IMG/VR virus record: IMGVR_UViG_641522623_000003 | Location: 1 to 11,078 of that record | Direction: 5' to 3' (one strand) | DNA length: 11,078 nt | Source: a virus | Lineage: Duplodnaviria > Heunggongvirae > Uroviricota > Caudoviricetes | Shown here: piece after piece, positions 1 through 11,078 of the stretch | How the letters are laid out: each line of letters begins with the position of its first letter | How positions within the stretch are numbered: the stretch's first letter is position 1 | Notes under the pieces: model-generated | Seen by the model: the letters and a program-made list of their open reading frames with translations, nothing else | Told to the model about the DNA's origin: nothing | The model's database searches: none | Made by a program: the position numbers and the translations under genes

Positions 1-477
1 ATGAAACTCATCAGTAACGATCTGCGCGATGGCGATAAATTGCCGCATCGTCATGTCTTTAACGGCATGGGTTACGATGGCGATAATATTTCACCGCATC
101 TGGCGTGGGATGATGTTCCTGCGGGAACGAAAAGTTTTGTTGTCACCTGCTACGACCCGGATGCGCCAACCGGCTCCGGCTGGTGGCACTGGGTAGTTGT
201 TAACTTACCCGCTGATACCCGCGTATTACCGCAAGGGTTTGGCTCTGGTCTGGTAGCAATGCCAGACGGCGTTTTGCAGACGCGTACCGACTTTGGTAAA
301 ACCGGGTACGATGGCGCAGCACCGCCGAAAGGCGAAACTCATCGCTACATTTTTACCGTTCACGCGCTGGATATAGAACGTATTGATGTCGATGAAGGTG
401 CCAGCGGCGCGATGGTCGGGTTTAACGTTCATTTCCACTCTCTGGCAAGCGCCTCGATTACTGCGATGTTTAGTTAA
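1..477 (+). CDS. ybhB: PEBP/RKIP-family protein YbhB (host gene on the bio side of attB)
   Basis: 158-aa ORF starting at window position 1 and ending TAA 475..477. The translation (…DPDAPTGSGWWHWVVVNLP…HRYIFTVHALD…) is recognised as E. coli YbhB. Recognition is from memory, not a search. Confidence 0.9.
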   Translation: MKLISNDLRDGDKLPHRHVFNGMGYDGDNISPHLAWDDVPAGTKSFVVTCYDPDAPTGSGWWHWVVVNLPADTRVLPQGFGSGLVAMPDGVLQTRTDFGKTGYDGAAPPKGETHRYIFTVHALDIERIDVDEGASGAMVGFNVHFHSLASASITAMFS

Positions 478-768: not shown

Positions 769-832
769 GTCGTAAAATCGGTAACGGCTGGAAATCATTC
801 AATACTCGCACTATCGAACATCCATCAGCCAG

Positions 833-865
833 CCGTGGCACGTTCTTGCATACGACGTGCCACGG
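833..865 (+). terminator. Second stem-loop in b-region remnant
   Basis: Perfect 10-bp stem CCGTGGCACG (833..842) / CGTGCCACGG (856..865) with a 13-nt loop, followed by TTTCATTTAT. Function unknown. Confidence 0.3.
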
Positions 866-1238
866 TTTCATTTATCTCCGCCCGGAAACTTCTTATACAA
901 AGTCGATACGCCAACATCATAGATGATCGCCACCTTCTGGCGAGAAACTCCTGATGCAATTAGTCGTCCAGCCTGCGCTCATTGCTCCGGCGTGAGAGTA
1001 AGACAGTAAACTGTAGAAAAATCTCATTAAACTTAATATAATAATAAGTTACAAAATTATCTTTACTGAATAATAGATATATGAACATTAGTGAACTTAA
1101 AAACTGTATACACTATGAAGTAATAGGTTATAAACGCCCTTTCTCCTGGCGAAAAGCAATTGTTCGCGCAATAAAACACAGAAGATTACGTTATTTATTT
1201 TGGTGGCGCATAGCAAAATATCTGGTAATGACTCCAAC

Positions 1239-1616
1239 TTATTGATAGTGTTTTATGTTCAGATAATGCCCGATGATTTTGTCATGCAGCTCCACCGATT
1301 TTGAGAACGACAGCGACTTCCGTCCCAGCCGTGCCAGGTGCTGCCTCAGATTCAGGTTATGCCGCTCAATGCGCTGAGTGTAACGCTTGCTGATAACGTG
1401 CAGCTTTCCCTTCAGGCGGGATTCATACAGCGGCCAGCCATCCGTCATCCATATCACCACGTCAAAGGGTGACAGCAGGCTCATAAGACGCCCCAGCGTC
1501 GCCATAGTGCGTTCACCGAATACGTGCGCAACAACCGTCTTCCGGAGCCTGTCATACGCGTAAAACAGCCAGCGCTGGCGCGATTTAGCCCCGACGTATC
1601 CCCACTGTTCGTCCAT
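1239..1616 (-). CDS. insB: IS1 insB reading frame (C-terminal catalytic part of InsAB' transposase)
   Basis: 125-aa track [25 protein letters not shown]…HYLNIKHYQ. The insB frame extends upstream to the A6C site. The nominal insB ATG (minus strand 1742..1740) is followed by TAG at codon 11 (1712..1710), where copy B has TGG. Confidence 0.85.
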
Positions 1617-1660
1617 TTCCGCGCAGACGATGACGTCACTGCCCGGCTGTATGCGCGAGG

Positions 1661-1936
1661 TTACCGACTGCGGCCTGAGTTTTTTAAGTGACGTAAAATC
1701 GTGTTGAGGCTAACGCCCATAATGCGTGCAGTTGCCCGGCATCCAACGCCATTCATGGCCATATCAATGATTTTCTGGTGCGTACCGGGTTGAGAAGCGG
1801 TGTAAGTGAACTGCAGTTGCCATGTTTTACGGCAGTGAGAGCAGAGATAGCGCTGATGTCCGGCGGTGCTTTTGCCGTTACGCACCACCCCGTCAGTAGC
1901 TGAACAGGAGGGACAGCTGATAGAAACAGAAGCCAC
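1661..1936 (-). CDS. insA: IS1 InsA (transposition repressor / N-terminal part of InsAB' transposase)
   Basis: 91-aa [42 protein letters not shown]…, the canonical IS1 InsA with its zinc-finger Cys motif. Confidence 0.9.
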
Positions 1937-2024
1937 TGGAGCACCTCAAAAACACCATCATACACTAAATCAGTAAGTTGGCAGCATCACCCGTTTTTCG
2001 TTATGTATAAATAAGGAGCACACC

Positions 2025-2189
2025 ATGCAATATGCCATTGCAGGGTGGCCTGTTGCTGGCTGCCCTTCCGAATCTTTACTTGAACGAATCACCCGTAAAT
2101 TACGTGACGGATGGAAACGCCTTATCGACATACTTAATCAGCCAGGAGTCCCGAAAAATGGATCAAACAATTATGGCTATCCAGACTAA
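2025..2189 (+). CDS. cIII: Lambda cIII (FtsH/HflB protease inhibitor, stabilises CII)
   Basis: ATG 2025, stop TAA 2187..2189. Translation [54 protein letters not shown] (54 aa). Upstream TTATGTATAAATAAGGAGCACACC includes the RBS. The gene is below the ORF-track length cutoff. Confidence 0.85.
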   Translation: MQYAIAGWPVAGCPSESLLERITRKLRDGWKRLIDILNQPGVPKNGSNNYGYPD

Positions 2190-2301
2190 ATTCACTATCG
2201 CCACTTTTATTGGCGATGAAAAGATGTTTCGTGAGGCCGTCGACGCTTATAAAAAATGGATATTAATACAGAAACTGAGATCAAGCAAAAGCATTCACTA
2301 A
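2158..2301 (+). CDS. kil: Lambda Kil (host cell-division inhibitor)
   Basis: 47-aa [50 protein letters not shown]. It overlaps the cIII 3' end by 32 nt as in lambda. The longer track ORF 2032..2301 is an upstream extension of this frame. Confidence 0.8.
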
Positions 2302-2376
2302 CCCCCTTTCCTGTTTTCCTAATCAGCCTGGCATTTCGCGGGCGATATTTTCACAGCCATTTTCAGGAGTTCAGCC

Positions 2377-2673
2377 ATGAACGCTTATTACATTCAGGAT
2401 CGTCTTGAGGCTCAGAGCTGGGCACGTCACTACCAGCAGATCGCCCGTGAAGAGAAAGAGGCAGAACTGGCAGACGACATGGAAAAAGGCCTGCCCCAGC
2501 ACCTGTTTGAATCGCTATGCATCGATCATTTGCAACGCCACGGGGCCAGCAAAAAAGCCATTACCCGTGCGTTTGATGACGATGTTGAGTTTCAGGAGCG
2601 CATGGCAGAACACATCCGGTACATGGTTGAAACCATTGCTCACCACCAGATTGATATTGATTCAGAGGTATAA
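2377..2673 (+). CDS. gam: Lambda Gam, short form (RecBCD inhibitor)
   Basis: 98-aa [63 protein letters not shown]…, recognised as lambda GamS. The upstream long-form start (ATG 2256) is out of frame here. Confidence 0.9.
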
Positions 2674-2678
2674 AACGG

Positions 2679-3464
2679 ATGAGTACAGCACTCGCAACGC
2701 TGGCTGGGAAGCTGGCTGAACGTGTCGGCATGGATTCTGTCGACCCACAGGAACTGATCACAACTCTTCGCCAGACGGCATTTAAATGTGATGCCAGCGA
2801 TGCGCAGTTCATCGCATTGTTGATCGTCGCCAACCAGTACGGCCTTAATCCGTGGACGAAAGAAATCTACGCCTTCCCTGATAAGCAGAACGGCATCGTT
2901 CCGGTGGTGGGCGTTGATGGCTGGTCCCGCATCATCAATGAAAACCAGCAGTTTGATGGCATGGACTTTGAGCAGGACAATGAATCCTGTACATGCCGGA
3001 TTTACCGCAAGGACCGTAATCATCCGATCTGCGTTACCGAATGGATGGATGAATGCCGCCGCGAACCATTCAAAACTCGCGAAGGCAGAGAAATCACGGG
3101 GCCGTGGCAGTCGCATCCCAAACGGATGTTACGGCATAAAGCTATGATTCAGTGTGCCCGTCTCGCCTTCGGATTTGCTGGTATCTATGACAAGGATGAA
3201 GCCGAGCGCATTGTCGAAAATACCGCATACACTGCAGAACGTCAGCCGGAACGCGACATCACTCCGGTTAACGATGAAACCATGCAGGAGATTAACACTC
3301 TGCTGATCGCCCTGGATAAAACATGGGATGACGACTTATTGCCGCTCTGTTCCCAGATATTTCGCCGCGACATTCGCGCATCGTCAGAACTGACACAGGC
3401 CGAAGCAGTGAAAGCTCTTGGATTCCTGAAACAGAAAGCCACTGAGCAGAAGGTGGCAGCATGA
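2679..3464 (+). CDS. bet: Lambda Bet (Red-beta single-strand annealing protein)
   Basis: 261-aa [38 protein letters not shown]…, full length. Start lies 6 nt after the gam stop. Confidence 0.95.
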
Positions 3465-4141
3465 CACCGGACATTATCCTGCAGCGTACCGGGATCGACG
3501 TGAGAGCTGTCGAACAGGGGGATGATGCATGGCACAAATTACGGCTCGGCGTCATCACCGCTTCAGAAGTTCACAACGTGATAGCAAAGCCCCGCTCAGG
3601 AAAGAAGTGGCCTGACATGAAAATGTCCTACTTCCACACCCTGCTGGCTGAGGTTTGCACCGGTGTGGCTCCGGAAGTTAATGCTAAGGCGCTGGCCTGG
3701 GGAAAACAGTACGAGAACGACGCCAGAACCCTGTTTGAATTCACTTCCGGCGTGAATGTTACTGAATCCCCGATCATCTATCGCGACGAAAATATGCGCA
3801 CTGCCTGCTCTCCCGATGGTTTATGCAGTGACGGCAACGGCCTTGAGCTGAAATGCCCGTTTACCTCCCGGGATTTCATGAAGTTCCGGCTCGGTGGTTT
3901 CGAGGCCATAAAGTCGGCTTACATGGCCCAGGTGCAGTACAGCATGTGGGTGACACGTAAAGATGCCTGGTACTTTGCCAACTATGACCCGCGTATGAAG
4001 CGTGAAGGACTGCATTATGTCGTGGTTGAGCGGGATGAAAAGTACATGGCGAGTTTTGACGAGATGGTGCCGGAGTTCATCGAAAAAATGGACGAGGCAC
4101 TGGCTGAAATTGGTTTTGTATTTGGGGAGCAATGGCGATGA
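3461..4141 (+). CDS. exo: Lambda Exo (Red-alpha 5'-3' dsDNA exonuclease)
   Basis: 226-aa [41 protein letters not shown]…, full length. ATGA overlap with the bet stop. Confidence 0.95.
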
Positions 4142-4320
4142 CGCATCCTCACGATAATATCCGGGTAGGCGCAATCACTTTCGTCTACTCCGTTACAAAG
4201 CGAGGCTGGGTATTTCCCGGCCTTTCTGTTATCCGAAATCCACTGAAAGCACAGCGGCTGGCTGAGGAGATAAATAATAAACGAGGGGCTGTATGCACAA
4301 AGCATCTCCTGTTGAGTTAA
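4138..4320 (+). CDS. Lambda exo-xis region protein, orf60a-like
   Basis: 60-aa [63 protein letters not shown], starting in an ATGA overlap with the exo stop. An alternative ATG at 4132 would give 62 aa. Position and length match lambda orf60a. Confidence 0.7.
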
Positions 4321-4484
4321 GAACGAGTATCGAGATGGCACATAGCCTTGCTCAAATTGGAATCAGGTTTGTGCCAATACCAGTAGAAACAGACGAAGAA
4401 TTTCATACGTTAGCCACATCCCTTTCACAAAAACTGGAAATGATGGTGGCGAAAGCAGAAGCAGATGAGAGAGACCAGGTATGA
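4293..4484 (+). CDS. Lambda exo-xis region protein, orf63-like
   Basis: 63-aa [66 protein letters not shown]. It overlaps orf60a by 28 nt, the same arrangement as lambda orf60a/orf63. Confidence 0.65.
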   Translation: MHKASPVELRTSIEMAHSLAQIGIRFVPIPVETDEEFHTLATSLSQKLEMMVAKAEADERDQV

Positions 4485-4494
4485 CAACCACTGA

Positions 4495-4776
4495 ATGCAT
4501 TTTTCTGGCAGCGGGCTTCATATTCTGTGTGCTTATGCTTGCCGACATGGGGCTTGTTCAGTGACACCTCAGCAGGAAAACGCCCTTCGCAGCATTGCCC
4601 GTCAGGCTAATTCTGAAATCAAAAAAGCCAGACAGCAGTTTCCGGATAAAAACGTCGATGACATTTGCCGTAGCGTACTGAAGAAGCACCGCGAAACGGT
4701 AACGCTGATGGGATTCACACCGACTCATTTAAGCCTAGCAATCGGCATGTTAAACGGCGTTTTTAAGGAACGGTGA
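4495..4776 (+). CDS. Hypothetical protein in exo-xis region (occupies the lambda orf61 position but differs in length)
   Basis: 93-aa ORF; start uncertain, with an in-frame GTG at 4561 as an alternative. An ATG at 4465 in the same frame is followed by TGA at 4492..4494. A 27-codon hydrophobic ORF (4481..4564, MTTTECIFLAAGFIFCVLMLADMGLVQ) overlaps in another frame. Confidence 0.45.
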   Translation: MHFSGSGLHILCAYACRHGACSVTPQQENALRSIARQANSEIKKARQQFPDKNVDDICRSVLKKHRETVTLMGFTPTHLSLAIGMLNGVFKER

Positions 4777-4798
4777 ACATGAAAAGCAAAATCATCAG

Positions 4799-4820
4799 GG
4801 AGCTACAGGCTCCTTTTTTA
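4799..4820 (+). terminator. Weak stem-loop plus U-tract
   Basis: GGAGC (4799..4803) / GCTCC (4809..4813) 5-bp stem followed by TTTTTTA. Lies between the hypothetical ORF and the TraR-like ORF. Confidence 0.25.
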
Positions 4821-4874
4821 TTATTCGCATTCACCCTCAAGCGTATTAACCAACAATTCAGGGATTAATGAAAG

Positions 4875-5096
4875 ATGGCAGACATCATTGATTCAGCATC
4901 AGAAATTGAAGAATTACAGCGCAACACAGCAATAAAAATGCGCCGCCTGAACCACCAGGCTATATCTGCCACTCATTGTTGTGAGTGTGGCGATCCGATA
5001 GATGAACGAAGACGCCTGGCCGTTCAGGGTTGTCGGACTTGTGCAAGTTGCCAGGAGGATCTGGAACTTATCAGTAAACAGAGAGGTTCGAAGTGA
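4875..5096 (+). CDS. TraR/DksA-family C4 zinc-finger protein (lambda Orf73-like)
   Basis: 73-aa ORF with CxxC…(17)…CxxC (CCECGDPIDERRRLAVQGCRTCASC). Size and position between orf61 and ea22 fit the lambda TraR homologue. Confidence 0.8.
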   Translation: MADIIDSASEIEELQRNTAIKMRRLNHQAISATHCCECGDPIDERRRLAVQGCRTCASCQEDLELISKQRGSK

Positions 5097-5506
5097 GCGT
5101 AATTCACTCTCAGGCACTGCGTGAAGCGGCAGAGCAGGCAATGCATGACAACTGGGGATTTGACGCGGACCTTTTCCATGAGCTGGTAACACCATCGATT
5201 GTGCTGACACTGCTGGATGAACGGGAAAGAAACCAGCAGTACATCAAACGCCGCGACCAGGAGAACGAGGATATTGCGCTAACGGTGAGGAAACTGCGTG
5301 TTGAGCTGGAGACAGCAAAAATCAAAACTCAACGAGCAGCGTGAGTAGAAGGTGTTATCTCGGATGGAAGTAAGCGTATTGCTGAACTGGAGGCCTGGGT
5401 TGAATACACAAGAGCTGCATACGTAAGAGCAAAAGACAAGGGAGATTTGATCAGAGTTATTACCCGACAACCAACGGGATTTTACGCTTACGTACCATGT
5501 AATTAG
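5093..5506 (+). pseudogene. ea22-like gene, interrupted by in-frame TGA and shortened
   Basis: GTG start 5093 overlaps the upstream stop. 83 codons (MSVIHSQALREAAEQAMHDNWGFDADLF…) run to TGA 5342..5344. The same frame then stays open for 53 more codons (VEGVISDGSKRIAELEAWVEYTRAAYVRAKDKGDL…) to TAG 5504..5506, with no in-frame start. Confidence 0.45.
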
Positions 5507-5590
5507 GAATCCTTGAAGTGGCAGCCTAACTGCGGATACACTGAAATGGCGATTTGGTAACATGTTTCGCACAAGGGTAGTGACTCCAAC

Positions 5591-6094
5591 TTACTGATAG
5601 TGTTTTATGTTCAGATAATGCCCGATGACCTTGTCATGCAGCTCCACCGATTTTGAGAACGACAGCGACTTCCGTCCCAGCCTTGCCAGATGTTGTCTCA
5701 GATTCAGATTATGTCGCTCAATGCGCTGAGTGTAACGCTTGCTGATAACGTGCAGCTTTCCCTTCAGGCGTGATTCATACAGCGGCCAGCCATCCGTCAT
5801 CCATACCACGACCTCAAAGGCCGACAGCAGGCTCAGAAGACGCTCCAGTGTGGCCAGAGTGCGTTCACCGAAAACGTGCGCCACAACTGTCCTCCGTATC
5901 CTGTCATACGCGTAAAACAGCCAGCGCTGACGTGATTTAGCACCGACGTAGCCCCACTGTTCGTCCATTTCCGCGCAGACGATGACGTCACTGCCCGGCT
6001 GTATGCGCGAGGTTACCGACTGCGGCCTGAGTTTTTTAAATGGCGGAAAATCGTGTTGAGGCCAACGCCCATAATGCGGGCGGTTGCCCGGCAT
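5591..6094 (-). CDS. insB: IS1 InsB (full 167-aa insB frame)
   Basis: 167-aa [19 protein letters not shown]…[10 protein letters not shown]6C frameshift motif present (plus-strand GAGTTTTTTAAA, ~6029..6040). Confidence 0.9.
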
Positions 6095-6288
6095 CCAACG
6101 CCATTCATGGCCATATCAATGATTTTCTGGTGCGTACCGGGTTGAGAAGCGGTGTAAGTGAACTGCAGTTGCCATGTTTTACGGCAGTGAGAGCAGAGAT
6201 AGCGCTGATGTCCGGCAGTGCTTTTGCCGTTACGCACCACCCCGTCAGTAGCTGAACAGGAGGGACAGCTGATAGAAACAGAAGCCAC
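6013..6288 (-). CDS. insA: IS1 InsA
   Basis: 91-aa ORF, 2 aa different from copy A (…[19 protein letters not shown]). Confidence 0.9.
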
Positions 6289-6400
6289 TGGAGCACCTCA
6301 AAAACACCATCATACACTAAATCAGTAAGTTGGCAGCATCACCCGCTTAAAGATAATCAGCCATGATTAAACGCTTTGTAAAAAGTAAAAGGAAATTACA

Positions 6401-7015
6401 ATGAAAAAATCAATACTAATTTTAGGGCTTACGTTAATTGTCTCATCTCAAATACCATCGGCAATGGCAAAAAATGAATCAAGACTTTGGGTTGTTGTTG
6501 ATCGAACGGAAAGACATACCTGCCCTTCAAGTAAATGTGGAGTGGCTGGGAAACTATTTTTCAGGGAAGGCGTAGATTTTCTAGAAAAAAAAGGTGAATG
6601 GGTTCGTATAACTGAGCCATATTCAGCCTCATGTGTGGGAGGGGAAAGCGAATATATTAAAGAAGGTAATAAATCCTGCACAAGAAAAAACGGAATCGTC
6701 AATGGCAAGTTTTCAGAATGGGTTAAACTTAGTGATCTTAGCAGTGAAAGGCCATCAGATCCTGCTGAAAATGCGAGCGGAGATGATACTTTAATCAAAG
6801 GATCTGATGACTACCGTATATACAAAAAAGAGTTTTCTTCGGCAGCTAGGAAGTTAATAAACGAAGGGGTCTGCACGGAAAGCGACTTTAAGGAAATCGG
6901 AGGGTGGATGGCATCAAGCAATAAGGGGAAAAACATCTATTTCACATATTGCGGAGGAATGACGTTGTCGAACAGAATATACCTAGACGTTAAAAGTGGA
7001 AAGACTTTTAGATAA
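6401..7015 (+). CDS. Secreted (Sec signal peptide) Cys-containing hypothetical protein, accessory cargo
   Basis: 204-aa ORF with RBS AAGGA 8 nt upstream. N-terminus MKKSILILGLTLIVSSQIPSAMA↓KNE is a typical signal peptide with AxA cleavage site and no lipobox. Mature part has 6 Cys. The gene is visibly AT-rich versus the flanking lambda genes. No family recognised by eye. Confidence 0.7.
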   Translation: MKKSILILGLTLIVSSQIPSAMAKNESRLWVVVDRTERHTCPSSKCGVAGKLFFREGVDFLEKKGEWVRITEPYSASCVGGESEYIKEGNKSCTRKNGIVNGKFSEWVKLSDLSSERPSDPAENASGDDTLIKGSDDYRIYKKEFSSAARKLINEGVCTESDFKEIGGWMASSNKGKNIYFTYCGGMTLSNRIYLDVKSGKTFR

Positions 7016-7086
7016 TATGATATTACCAATGACAGTATTAATTTAATGCCTCCATAGAATTATCTCTAGGAAGTATGTATAAGAAA

Positions 7087-7120
7087 AGCCCGCACAATGA
7101 GCTGCTGCGGGCTTTGTGTT
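7087..7120 (+). terminator. Rho-independent terminator candidate downstream of secreted-protein gene
   Basis: Stem AGCCCGCA (7087..7094) / TGCGGGCT (7106..7113) with an 11-nt loop, followed by TTGTGTT. Confidence 0.5.
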
Positions 7121-7308
7121 ATTCGCCATATTTTATGAAGCAAATACGACACTATAGATAATTAAGCGTTGCTGGTTGTCGATTCCTCACTCACTCCTGT
7201 TGATGGCTCTCTTCTTGTATGTGCCATTGAAGGGTAATATCGAGTAAAAAGATACCGGAAGTATCCGCGCCGCCATGATTGTCTTTCTCCTAATGCAGGA
7301 AAAGCAGA

Positions 7309-7428
7309 ATGGCTAAATCATCAGCAGAGCGCAAAGTCGATCAGAGAGCCAAGCAAGCATCATCCGGTATGCGTAAGCTGGAGCTTGTACTTGATGCTCA
7401 GGAAATTGAAATGCTGGATCGTAACTGA
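7309..7428 (+). CDS. Small hypothetical ORF (39 aa) whose frame continues past its TGA stop
   Basis: ATG 7309 with AGGAAA 10 nt upstream. Translation MAKSSAERKVDQRAKQASSGMRKLELVLDAQEIEMLDRN, stop TGA 7426..7428. The same frame continues 72 codons to TAA 7645..7647 (ATRRFRHAPYEFGEYIALLSRQDDARVRWRIKSISRKRCGKCGERVPVNSCPCNGDSQCWVTKGWHETKLMI) with no ATG. Confidence 0.35.
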   Translation: MAKSSAERKVDQRAKQASSGMRKLELVLDAQEIEMLDRN

Positions 7429-7675
7429 GCCACGCGCCGCTTCAGGCATGCGCCTTACGAGTTTGGTGAGTACATCGCGTTACTGAGCCGCCAGGATGAT
7501 GCACGTGTGCGCTGGCGTATAAAATCGATCAGCAGAAAACGTTGCGGTAAGTGCGGCGAGAGAGTTCCTGTTAATTCATGCCCGTGTAATGGTGACTCAC
7601 AATGCTGGGTGACCAAAGGCTGGCACGAAACAAAATTAATGATATAAATCTCTGTGACATGTCACGGAGGCGGCA

Positions 7676-8104
7676 ATGAAATTAGACCAGCAATATCTAA
7701 AAGATCTACTTATCGCATTCGAAAAAACTCATGGCCCTGACACGATGCTTAGTGAACTAGAGGATAATGGCTTTAATAGATATGACCAAAATTTTATTTT
7801 CCATATGCGATTATTATGCGACTACGAATTAATAGTCAGGGTTGATGGAAAACCTGGGTTCGGTCATATAATGTCCAACGAGTTAGGGGAAGGTGTTGGA
7901 TATAGTTGGATCGAAGTACCACTGAGGTTGACAGCAAGAGGGCATGATTTTATTGCTGACTTGCGTCAAAAGGAGGTCTGGCAAACTATAAAAACAAACT
8001 TTAAGGATGAGGGAATTAGTACACTAATAAGTGTTTCAAAATCACTAGCAAAAGGCTTTGCAAGGAAAAAGATAAAAGATATTACAGGAATAGATATTGA
8101 ATAA
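7676..8104 (+). CDS. DUF2513-like hypothetical protein (putative winged-helix), accessory cargo at the lambda ea8.5 position
   Basis: 142-aa ORF with strong RBS GGAGG (7666..7670) 5 nt before the ATG. AT-rich codon usage. The motif …RLTARGHDFIADLRQKEVWQTIK… and a basic C-terminal tail resemble my memory of DUF2513 proteins (…LTWxGHEFLDAIRD…VW…). Confidence 0.65.
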   Translation: MKLDQQYLKDLLIAFEKTHGPDTMLSELEDNGFNRYDQNFIFHMRLLCDYELIVRVDGKPGFGHIMSNELGEGVGYSWIEVPLRLTARGHDFIADLRQKEVWQTIKTNFKDEGISTLISVSKSLAKGFARKKIKDITGIDIE

Positions 8105-8186
8105 TTCTTAGCATCAGCAACTACTGCCTTTGGTGGAAATTATATCTGAACTCGCTACGGCGAGTTTTGTTTTATGGAGATGATAA

Positions 8187-8354
8187 ATGCACTTCCGAGT
8201 CACAGGTGAATGGAATGGAGAACCATTCAACAGAGTTATCGAAGCAGAGAACATCAATGACTGCTATGACCACTGGATGATATGGGCGCAGATAGCACAT
8301 GCAGACATAACCAATATTCGAATTGAAGAACTGAAAGAACACCAAGCCGCCTGA
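8187..8354 (+). CDS. Small lambda-like ORF upstream of xis (orf55-like)
   Basis: 55-aa ORF MHFRVTGEWNGEPFNRVIEAENINDCYDHWMIWAQIAHADITNIRIEELKEHQAA with RBS GGAGA 7 nt upstream. Length and position match the small ORF lambda carries between ea8.5 and xis. Confidence 0.55.
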   Translation: MHFRVTGEWNGEPFNRVIEAENINDCYDHWMIWAQIAHADITNIRIEELKEHQAA

Positions 8355-8393: not shown

Positions 8394-8612
8394 ATGTACT
8401 TGACACTTCAGGAGTGGAACGCTCGCCAGCGACGCCCAAGAAGCCTTGAAACAGTTCGTCGATGGGTGCGCGAATGCAGGATATTCCCTCCTCCGGTTAA
8501 GGATGGAAGAGAATATCTGTTCCACGAATCAGCGGTAAAGGTTGACTTAAATCGACCAGTAACAGGTAGCCTTTTGAAGAGGATCAGAAATGGGAAGAAG
8601 GCGAAGTCATGA
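8394..8612 (+). CDS. xis: Lambda excisionase Xis
   Basis: 72-aa ORF MYLTLQEWNARQRRPRSLETVRRWVRECRIFPPPVKDGREYLFHESAVKVDLNRPVTGSLLKRIRNGKKAKS. Its 3' end overlaps int by 23 nt as in lambda. Confidence 0.92.
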   Translation: MYLTLQEWNARQRRPRSLETVRRWVRECRIFPPPVKDGREYLFHESAVKVDLNRPVTGSLLKRIRNGKKAKS

Positions 8613-9660
8613 GCGCCGGGATTTACCCCCTAACCTTTATATAAGAAACAATGGATATTACTGCTACAGGGACCCAAGGACGGGTAAAGAGTTTGGATTA
8701 GGCCGAGACAGGCGAATCGCAATCACTGAAGCTATACAGGCCAACATTGAGTTATTTTCAGGACACAAACACAAGCCTCTGACAGCGAGAATCAACAGTG
8801 ATAATTCCGTTACGTTACATTCATGGCTTGATCGCTACGAAAAAATCCTGGCCAGCAGAGGAATCAAGCAGAAGACACTCATAAATTACATGAGCAAAAT
8901 TAAAGCAATAAGGAGGGGTCTGCCTGATGCTCCACTTGAAGACATCACCACAAAAGAAATTGCGGCAATGCTCAATGGATACATAGACGAGGGAAAGGCG
9001 GCATCAGCCAAGTTAATCAGATCAACACTGAGCGATGCATTCCGAGAGGCTATGGCTGAAGGCCATATAACAACAAACCCGGTCGCAGCCACTCGCGCTG
9101 CAAAATCAGAGGTAAGGAGATCAAGACTTACGGCTGACGAATACCTGAAAATTTATCAAGCAGCAGAATCATCACCATGTTGGCTTAGACTTGCAATGGA
9201 ACTGGCTGTTGTTACCGGGCAGCGAGTTGGTGATTTATGCGAAATGAAGTGGTCTGATATCGTAGATGGATATCTTTATGTCGAGCAAAGCAAAACAGGC
9301 GTAAAAATTGCCATCCCAACAACATTGCATGTTGATGCTCTCGGGATATCAATGAAGGAAACACTTGATAAATGCAAAAAGATTCTTGGCGGAGAAACCA
9401 TAATTGCATCTACTCGTCGTGAACCGCTTTCATCCGGCACAGTATCAAGGTATTTTATGCGCGCACGAAAAGCATCAGGTCTCTCCTTCGAAGGGGATCC
9501 GCCAACCTTTCACGAGTTGCGCAGTTTGTCTGCAAGACTCTATGAGAAGCAGATAAGCGATAAATTTGCTCAACATCTTCTCGGGCATAAGTCGGACACC
9601 ATGGCATCACAGTATCGTGATGACAGAGGCAGGGAGTGGGACAAAATTGAAATCAAATAA
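8590..9660 (+). CDS. int: Lambda integrase Int (tyrosine recombinase)
   Basis: 356-aa ORF MGRRRSHERRDLPPNLYIRNNGYYCYRDPRTGKEFGLGRDRR… ending …HLLGHKSDTMASQYRDDRGREWDKIEIK. It carries the tyrosine-recombinase residues (…HELRSLSARLY…, catalytic Tyr in SQY) and is transcribed toward attL/ybhC. Confidence 0.95.
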   Translation: MGRRRSHERRDLPPNLYIRNNGYYCYRDPRTGKEFGLGRDRRIAITEAIQANIELFSGHKHKPLTARINSDNSVTLHSWLDRYEKILASRGIKQKTLINYMSKIKAIRRGLPDAPLEDITTKEIAAMLNGYIDEGKAASAKLIRSTLSDAFREAMAEGHITTNPVAATRAAKSEVRRSRLTADEYLKIYQAAESSPCWLRLAMELAVVTGQRVGDLCEMKWSDIVDGYLYVEQSKTGVKIAIPTTLHVDALGISMKETLDKCKKILGGETIIASTRREPLSSGTVSRYFMRARKASGLSFEGDPPTFHELRSLSARLYEKQISDKFAQHLLGHKSDTMASQYRDDRGREWDKIEIK

Positions 9661-9794: not shown

Positions 9795-11078
9795 GTGAAC
9801 ACATTTTCAGTTTCCCGTCTGGCGCTGGCATTGGCTTTTGGCGTGACGCTGACCGCCTGTAGCTCAACCCCGCCCGATCAACGTCCTTCTGATCAAACCG
9901 CGCCTGGTACCTCTTCTCGCCCGATTCTGTCGGCAAAAGAAGCGCAGAATTTCGATGCTCAACACTATTTTGCATCCCTGACACCAGGTGCTGCAGCGTG
10001 GAATCCTTCCCCGATTACCCTGCCTGCGCAACCTGAATTTGTTGTCGGCCCGGCGGGCACTCAAGGTGTAACGCATACCACGATTCAGGCGGCGGTAGAT
10101 GCGGCAATTATCAAGCGTACCAACAAGCGCCAGTATATTGCCGTGATGCCTGGTGAGTATCAGGGAACGGTATATGTCCCTGCCGCTCCGGGTGGAATTA
10201 CTCTGTACGGTACAGGTGAAAAACCGATTGATGTGAAGATTGGGCTTTCCCTTGATGGTGGCATGAGCCCTGCCGACTGGCGTCACGACGTCAACCCGCG
10301 CGGCAAATATATGCCAGGTAAACCAGCGTGGTATATGTACGATAGCTGCCAGAGCAAACGCAGCGACAGTATCGGTGTTCTCTGCTCTGCGGTCTTCTGG
10401 TCACAAAACAATGGCCTGCAACTGCAAAATCTGACCATCGAAAACACGCTGGGCGATAGCGTAGATGCAGGTAACCATCCGGCGGTGGCACTGCGTACTG
10501 ATGGTGACCAGGTACAGATTAACAACGTTAACATTCTCGGTCGTCAGAACACCTTCTTTGTCACCAACAGCGGTGTGCAGAACCGTCTGGAAACGAATCG
10601 TCAGCCGCGTACGCTGGTGACCAACAGCTACATTGAAGGGGATGTGGATATCGTTTCTGGTCGCGGCGCAGTGGTGTTCGATAACACCGAATTCCGCGTG
10701 GTGAACTCACGTACTCAGCAAGAAGCGTATGTGTTTGCACCGGCTACGCTGTCCAACATTTACTACGGTTTCCTCGCCGTAAACAGCCGTTTCAATGCTT
10801 TCGGTGATGGTGTGGCGCAACTGGGCCGCTCGCTGGATGTTGATGCCAATACCAACGGTCAGGTGGTGATCCGTGATAGCGCCATCAACGAAGGTTTTAA
10901 CACGGCTAAACCGTGGGCCGATGCGGTGATCTCTAATCGTCCGTTTGCGGGTAATACCGGCAGCGTAGATGATAACGACGAAATACAGCGCAATCTGAAT
11001 GACACTAACTACAACCGCATGTGGGAATACAATAACCGCGGCGTGGGTAGTAAAGTGGTTGCAGAGGCGAAGAAGTAA
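9795..11078 (+). CDS. ybhC: Pectinesterase-family (CE8-like) outer-membrane lipoprotein YbhC
   Basis: 427-aa ORF with GTG start 9795 and lipoprotein signal MNTFSVSRLALALAFGVTLTAC (lipobox LTAC). Mature part has the right-handed beta-helix character of pectin methylesterases; recognised as E. coli YbhC. Stop at window end (TAA 11076..11078). Confidence 0.9.
   Translation: MNTFSVSRLALALAFGVTLTACSSTPPDQRPSDQTAPGTSSRPILSAKEAQNFDAQHYFASLTPGAAAWNPSPITLPAQPEFVVGPAGTQGVTHTTIQAAVDAAIIKRTNKRQYIAVMPGEYQGTVYVPAAPGGITLYGTGEKPIDVKIGLSLDGGMSPADWRHDVNPRGKYMPGKPAWYMYDSCQSKRSDSIGVLCSAVFWSQNNGLQLQNLTIENTLGDSVDAGNHPAVALRTDGDQVQINNVNILGRQNTFFVTNSGVQNRLETNRQPRTLVTNSYIEGDVDIVSGRGAVVFDNTEFRVVNSRTQQEAYVFAPATLSNIYYGFLAVNSRFNAFGDGVAQLGRSLDVDANTNGQVVIRDSAINEGFNTAKPWADAVISNRPFAGNTGSVDDNDEIQRNLNDTNYNRMWEYNNRGVGSKVVAEAKK

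Follow-up and report, generated by a model that had tools for sequence, protein, structure and literature searches.

Orf73 of phage lambda is the closest experimentally described relative of the protein studied here. Once purified, it binds RNA polymerase at the site used by DksA, competing with DksA, and needs no ppGpp to inhibit rrnB P1, its IC50 of ~50 nM being equal to that of TraR; rpsT P2 is also inhibited, and the activity is lost or impaired by the D3N or D6N substitution (Gopalkrishnan et al. 2022, mBio; PMC9239242). When orf73 was driven by pL in vivo, rRNA leader synthesis was 29% of that in the orf73-deleted control, a drop of ~3-fold, and rpsT mRNA was 45% of that in the same control; expression slowed host growth and increased the phage yield after induction 3- to 4-fold (PMC9239242). 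The thrABC, argI and rpoH P3 promoters were activated in vitro ‘weakly if at all’, which the authors tentatively tied to two extra cysteines that possibly disturb how the globular domain folds, and the dksA null mutant was complemented on minimal medium only with IPTG induction (PMC9239242). In TraR, R48 and R49 contact the rim helices of the secondary channel and β′ Si3 (PMC9239242), and in published work lambda Orf73 was modelled with AlphaFold (pLDDT 93) and the model was put by docking where TraR sits in RNA polymerase (PMC8614690). The exo-xis genes of lambda, including orf73, are transcribed from pL (PMC9239242, PMC4195576).

The DNA analysed here (hereafter referred to as the window) is a stretch of 11,078 nucleotides from a virus record, and it is 100% identical to the chromosome of E. 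coli ATCC 8739 from ybhB to ybhC, the flanks of attLambda. Within it, 9.2 kb lie between two exact att cores (Table 1). The cryptic prophage that had been proposed as the setting of the gene proved to be a decayed lambda remnant bounded by these cores, and orf73 lies, as had also been proposed, in the exo-xis region, between exo and xis. Its reading frame starts with the ATG at 4875, the first start codon past the upstream in-frame stop, ends with TGA and encodes MADIIDSASEIEELQRNTAIKMRRLNHQAISATHCCECGDPIDERRRLAVQGCRTCASCQEDLELISKQRGSK (73 aa, + strand). The stop codon overlaps the GTG start of ea22 (GTGA), and the same overlap is found in lambda. The frame is a real gene and not a chance ORF, because its product has Pfam and PHROG matches and is identical to lambda Orf73 at 72 of 73 residues. 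Neither an Rfam family nor a tRNA was found to overlap orf73, and a PADLOC match of the protein to mREase_II (E = 0.0065) was set aside as zinc-ribbon noise.

Table 1. Features of the window, numbered from its first nucleotide
Feature	Coordinates	Strand	Remarks
ybhB	1–477		
attLambda core GCTTTTTTATACTAA	568–582	-	remnant end on the ybhB side
Short pseudogene fragments	~770–1224		
IS1 copy A	1224–1991	-	transposase reads away from orf73
cIII	2025–2189	+	
kil	2158–2301	+	
gam	2377–2673	+	98-aa form
bet	2679–3464	+	
exo	3461–4141	+	
orf60a	4138–4320		
Terminator-like stem-loop	4202–4224	+	inside orf60a; fold −17.6 kcal/mol, z = −3.5
orf63	4293–4484		
orf61-like ORF	4495–4776	+	
Predicted promoter p1 (BPROM)	4792–4824	+	−35 TCATCA (4792–4797), −10 TTTTATTAT (4816–4824)
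Intrinsic terminator t2	4797–4825	+	orf61-orf73 spacer; 8-bp stem, 3-nt loop, U-rich tail
Putative weak Shine-Dalgarno-like AGGGA	4860–4864	+	10 nt before the orf73 ATG; from reading of the sequence
orf73 CDS	4875–5096	+	73 aa and TGA stop; allele of lambda Orf73, TraR-family regulator predicted to bind RNA polymerase
DxxDxA motif (D3-I-I-D6-S-A8)	4881–4898	+	N-terminal helix; read from the sequence; tip would reach the polymerase active-site region
C4 zinc-finger globular domain	4977–5051	+	ligands C35, C38, C56, C59
Truncated ea22	5093–5344	+	83-aa N-terminal fragment; Pfam Ead_Ea22
IS1 copy B	5576–6343	-	3′ of the ea22 fragment; oriented like copy A, 95% identical
204-aa ORF	6401–7015	+	
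DUF2513	7676–8104	+	
orf55-like	8187–8354	+	55 aa
xis	8394–8612		
int	8590–9660		
attLambda core GCTTTTTTATACTAA	9734–9748	-	remnant end on the int/ybhC side
ybhC	9795–11078		

The sole residue at which the window protein departs from the lambda reference is position 49, a valine in lambda and an alanine here (V49A), whose codon at 5019–5021 falls inside the zinc-finger domain. At the DNA level, positions 4100–5600 (1501 bases) matched lambda (NC_001416) with 97.3% identity across 86% of this query. The gene order exo-orf60a-orf63-orf61-orf73-ea22 is that of lambda, with orf73 between orf61 and ea22, and the neighbours of orf73 matched DUF1317, DUF1382 and Ead_Ea22 of Pfam. We conclude that the window gene is almost certainly an intact allele of lambda orf73, whose product would act as lambda Orf73 does. 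The exact Orf73 sequence was found on at least 1000 contigs, and orf73-like DNA, defined by at least 80% coverage of a 321-nt probe, is carried by 3303 of the 5426 complete E. coli genomes. RefSeq names the exact sequence ‘TraR/DksA family transcriptional regulator’ (WP_000763363.1), an annotation that is already correct; a literature search for this accession gave no match.

Upstream of orf73, the orf61 position is occupied by a single 93-aa ORF matching positions 1–93 of the 101 in phrog_303, within which RefSeq annotates just 4561–4776. Reference lambda has at this position (3866–4178 of the lambda stretch compared) the 61-aa orf61, followed by a second ORF of 60 aa whose frame is different; a frameshift in a longer gene may have given rise to lambda orf61.

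The original prediction, a TraR/DksA-type zinc-finger protein of 73 residues with two CxxC pairs, is upheld by a profile match above its cut-off, by a full-length alignment with TraR in which both pairs are present, and by the near-identity to lambda Orf73. Pfam PF01258 (zf-dskA_traR) matched residues 33–64 with 35.8 bits (E = 7.7e-9) against a gathering cut-off of 24.9 bits, which is the HMM confirmation that had been proposed as a check, and PHROG phrog_54 (‘DksA-like zinc-finger protein’) matched residues 1–71 (E = 2e-25). The score for NCBIfam TIGR02419, the TraR subfamily, was 55.7, narrowly below the cut-off of 59.7; we read this miss as a strict threshold and not as exclusion, because lambda Orf73, one residue different, is experimentally TraR-like. 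The NCBIfam TraR equivalog model gave 26.3 against a cut-off of 108, and the protein is therefore a TraR homolog, not TraR itself.

Residues 1–64 of Orf73 aligned with residues 1–66 of F-plasmid TraR as found in its RNA polymerase complexes (5W1S, 6N57 and relatives). In this alignment, D3, D6 and A8 are paired with the same residues of TraR, the cysteines C35, C38, C56 and C59 with C37, C40, C58 and C61, and E44, R46 and R47, which sit between the zinc ligands, with E46, R48 and R49. Among the alleles and TraR, residues D3, D6, C35, C38, E44, R46, C56 and C59 are invariant; conservation is at least 90% for A8 and for R47, V8 occurring in one allele. Orf73 has six cysteines (C35, C36, C38, C53, C56 and C59). 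The pairs C35-x2-C38 and C56-x2-C59 are 17 residues apart, and C36 and C53 are the extra cysteines, the latter forming a third CxxC (C53-x2-C56) that overlaps the second pair. The protein has what characterizes the DksA/TraR superfamily, namely PF01258 above threshold and the CxxC-17-CxxC ligands, and what characterizes the TraR family, namely DxxDxA, a length of ~73 aa with a predicted single N-terminal helix where DksA has its coiled coil, and the equivalents of R48 and R49. A single-sequence AlphaFold2 model, of low confidence (pLDDT 58.5), placed helices at residues 5–30, 43–47 and 56–70.

By analogy with TraR structures, the N-terminal helix would bring DxxDxA, at its tip, to the active-site region of the polymerase; the C4 zinc domain would contact the secondary-channel rim and β′ Si3, as in TraR cryo-EM structures, and the C-terminal helix would contact β Si1, as in TraR-polymerase structures. 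Binding of RNA polymerase at the DksA site, without ppGpp, would inhibit rRNA and ribosomal-protein promoters. Given its 72/73 identity to lambda Orf73, the A49 allele is expected to bind RNA polymerase and to inhibit rrnB P1 independently of ppGpp. In a live phage, pL drives orf73 at an early stage of the lytic cycle, and the gene slows the host and raises the phage yield. The notion that the protein binds RNA polymerase and mimics DksA plus ppGpp, put forward from the sequence, agrees with what has been shown experimentally for the 72/73-identical lambda Orf73 (PMC9239242). The accompanying suggestion, that it could affect the regulation of host rRNA and amino-acid promoters, stands in its first half: lambda Orf73 inhibits rRNA promoters but barely activates thrABC and argI (PMC9239242). 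The amino-acid-promoter half is weaker than for TraR because of the weak activation of thrABC, argI and rpoH P3 and the dependence of dksA complementation on IPTG. The rrnB P1 and dksA-mutant experiments that had been suggested are already published for lambda Orf73 (PMC9239242).

None of N, pL, cI, cro, O, P, Q, the lysis genes or the structural genes is annotated in the remnant, and a search of the remnant for the boxB of nutL did not find it. IS1 copy A occupies the place of everything upstream of cIII, namely ea10, N, nutL, pL and the immunity region. A sister remnant, that of strain PSJ-12, keeps ea10 and a partial N where the window has IS1 copy A. Thus, copy A marks the deletion of the pL operon.

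Several features of the block downstream of this copy deserve description. Just 3′ of IS1 copy A, the thermoregulator RNA element of lambda cIII (2012–2070, + strand; Rfam RF01804, 88.5 bits) is intact, its promoter being gone, and cIII, kil, gam, bet and exo (2025–4141, + strand) are all intact ORFs despite the absence of pL; recombination between the Red genes of the remnant and lambdoid phages that enter the cell could still occur. The two IS1 copies point the same way and bracket the 3.6-kb cIII-Red-orf73-truncated ea22 block in a layout like that of a composite transposon. A 9-bp target duplication was matched neither for either copy nor for the pair combined, and comparison with PSJ-12 indicated that copy B replaces ~17 bp instead of duplicating its target. 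A 22-nt inverted repeat, 95% complementary, is formed by 2863–2884 in bet and 6558–6579 in the 204-aa ORF and may be due to chance; its exact 17-nt core in bet belongs to this allele only and is missing from the PSJ-12 bet and from the lambda locus.

Beyond IS1 copy B, the ea8.5 region of lambda is swapped for other cargo (6401–8354, + strand). The 204-aa ORF in it has an N-terminal signal-peptide-like sequence and matches phrog_8310, without a Pfam match. It is followed by a pseudogene fragment, ‘DNA repair protein’, at 7169–7234 and by a pseudogene, ‘hypothetical protein, internal stop’, at 7309–7647, whose 46-aa ORF (7507–7647) matches the C-terminal part of phrog_536, labelled ‘transcriptional regulator’. 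No PADLOC defence match was obtained among this cargo. At the other end of the remnant, before IS1 copy A, positions 478–1223 contain partial pseudogenes that RefSeq annotates as ‘nucleocapsid protein’, ‘helix-turn-helix’ and ‘serine acetyltransferase’; the full 746-bp stretch is present in only 14 complete genomes.

With the lambda promoter gone, we looked at what lies between IS1 copy A and orf73. The terminator-like stem-loop inside orf60a sits at what we take to be the position of lambda tL3. In the orf61-orf73 spacer, the stem-loop of t2 (4797–4815) is followed by UUUUUUAUUAUU, has a fold of −10.2 kcal/mol (z = −3.3) and ends 60 nt before the orf73 ATG; this terminator is the one that Bloch et al. 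2014 named ‘t2’ (PMC4195576). A promoter scan of 1900–5700 returned no sigma-70 site on the + strand, p1 failing as well, and a relaxed scan gave 8/12 to 9/12 matches at most, none of them convincing. No + strand sigma-70 match of at least 9/12 was found near orf73. The single candidate between t2 and the ATG scored 8/12, and its transcript would start within the ribosome-binding region. At IS1 copy A, a hybrid promoter composed of an outward −35 TTGGCA (1978–1983) and a −10-like TATAAA (2006–2011) was rejected because their 22-bp spacing is too long. On the opposite strand, a sigma-70-like site at 4820–4849 (TTAATA, 18-nt spacer, AATAAT; 9/12), a consensus match only, points leftward from within the orf61-orf73 spacer, antisense to orf61.

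The gene content of the block bears on its transcription as well. Upstream of orf73 and in the same orientation lies an intact kil, and Kil inhibits host cell division. With this kil intact and unrepressed, we infer that appreciable transcription of the block is unlikely. With pL, N and nutL missing, a pair of intrinsic terminators upstream of the gene and no good promoter directed at it, orf73 of the remnant is probably silent and without effect on the host, as judged from its sequence context. The original prediction had made any host effect depend on expression from the cryptic prophage, which probably does not take place. Expression from pL with N antitermination would be expected of an ortholog of lambda Orf73; the absence of pL, N and nutL here concerns the expression context, not the membership of the protein. 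Overall, the window very likely contains an intact TraR-family allele of lambda orf73 that would ride as a silent passenger in the pL-less remnant of lambda, 9.2 kb long, which E. coli ATCC 8739 carries at attLambda.

A gene inert for the host might still be of use to phages, in that infecting lambdoid phages could acquire it, together with its Red and exo-xis neighbours, by homologous recombination with the remnant. The block from cIII to the truncated ea22 is ~97% identical to lambda and to many Stx phages, and bet and exo are intact; temperate phages are reported to gain DNA from defective prophages (PMC3945230). Such a reservoir role is conceivable and, in our estimation, rather unlikely; it is compatible with the silent-passenger reading and is not an alternative to it.

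A true alternative would be that orf73 has become a host regulator whose expression, perhaps during oxidative stress, is independent of pL and comes from p1 or from a weak promoter where IS1 joins the remnant. The p1 promoter, just upstream of orf73, was predicted with BPROM by Bloch et al. 2014, and in Phi24B lysogens induced with H2O2 the orf73 and ea22 transcripts were above those of the upstream genes (PMC4195576). Both p1 hexamers are intact in the window; however, they are 21 bp apart, the −35 matches at 3/6 positions, the promoter overlaps t2, and it failed the sigma-70 scans described above. Moreover, its −10 is changed from TATTAT to TATTGC in the PSJ-12 remnant, and p1 therefore seems unconserved.

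The distribution of the gene could also be taken to speak for such a regulator. The arrangement orf73-truncated ea22-204-aa ORF occurs in 116 complete genomes, and among those listed the TraR/DksA gene is annotated, intact, in 60 of 60. However, these remnants are 99.8–100% identical, so the intact ORF may just mean recent common descent, and their near-uniformity is therefore no evidence for or against selection. Between the window and the PSJ-12 remnant, orf73 differs by six nucleotides and two amino acids (I30V and R45L), and the genes beside it are likewise biased to synonymous changes. This bias can stem from the live-phage period, and the synonymous and non-synonymous counts proved uninformative as a selection test because the divergence may predate the decay of the prophage. 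In addition, lambda Orf73 slows growth, and constitutive expression would therefore be costly. We consider a domesticated regulator improbable. More doubtful still, and indeed very hard to sustain, is the view that the ORF is intact and its protein non-functional through V49A or the two extra cysteines: one residue does differ from the assayed lambda protein, and the extra cysteines may, as its authors suggest, disturb how the globular domain folds (PMC9239242), but most close alleles have A49, V49 of lambda being in the minority, viable phage 434 encodes an identical protein (73/73), lambda Orf73 shares the extra cysteines and yet matches TraR in potency on rrnB P1, and every residue known to matter is kept.

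The silent-passenger reading leaves little that is new about the protein, whose family, mechanism and phage role are already known, having been published in 2022 for a protein one residue different. As an ordinary copy of a lambda gene, probably silent, orf73 in the remnant is of little consequence. If pL-less remnants did express orf73, a widespread prophage relic would alter host growth-rate control without ppGpp, and a domesticated brake on ribosome synthesis, independent of ppGpp, would be present in ATCC 8739 and in ~116 related complete E. coli genomes; the sequence evidence points against such expression.

Among the known systems, DksA, which is about twice as long as Orf73, shares with it the PF01258 C4 zinc finger, the essential aspartate pair and the site at which RNA polymerase is bound. 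To be fully active, DksA requires ppGpp, and it carries its aspartates at the tip of a coiled coil, whereas Orf73 has a single N-terminal helix and acts alone at lower concentration (PMC9239242). Orf82 of phage P2 belongs to the same zinc-finger family and is one of five homologs that act like TraR, but it is without A8 of DxxDxA and is ~5-fold less potent on rrnB P1 (PMC9239242). E. coli YbiI (PDB 2KGO), also of the zinc-finger family, is the best PDB sequence match, covering residues 29–65, the zinc domain only. F-plasmid TraR, compared through PDB 5W1S and 6N57/6N58, resembles Orf73 in its 73 aa, in DxxDxA at residues 3–8, in CxxC-17-CxxC and in E-x-R-R after the first zinc knuckle; it differs in that identity is ~34%, and Orf73 has the two extra cysteines and L48 where TraR has K50. 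TraR acts as an activator on both host promoters and the tra promoters of F, whereas lambda Orf73 barely activates thrABC, argI and rpoH P3. Lambda orf73 itself differs from the window copy, which has V49A and is separated from pL, N and nutL by a deletion and an IS1 insertion, whereas its position between orf61 and ea22, the stop/start overlap with ea22, the upstream terminator and all functional residues of the protein are shared by the two.
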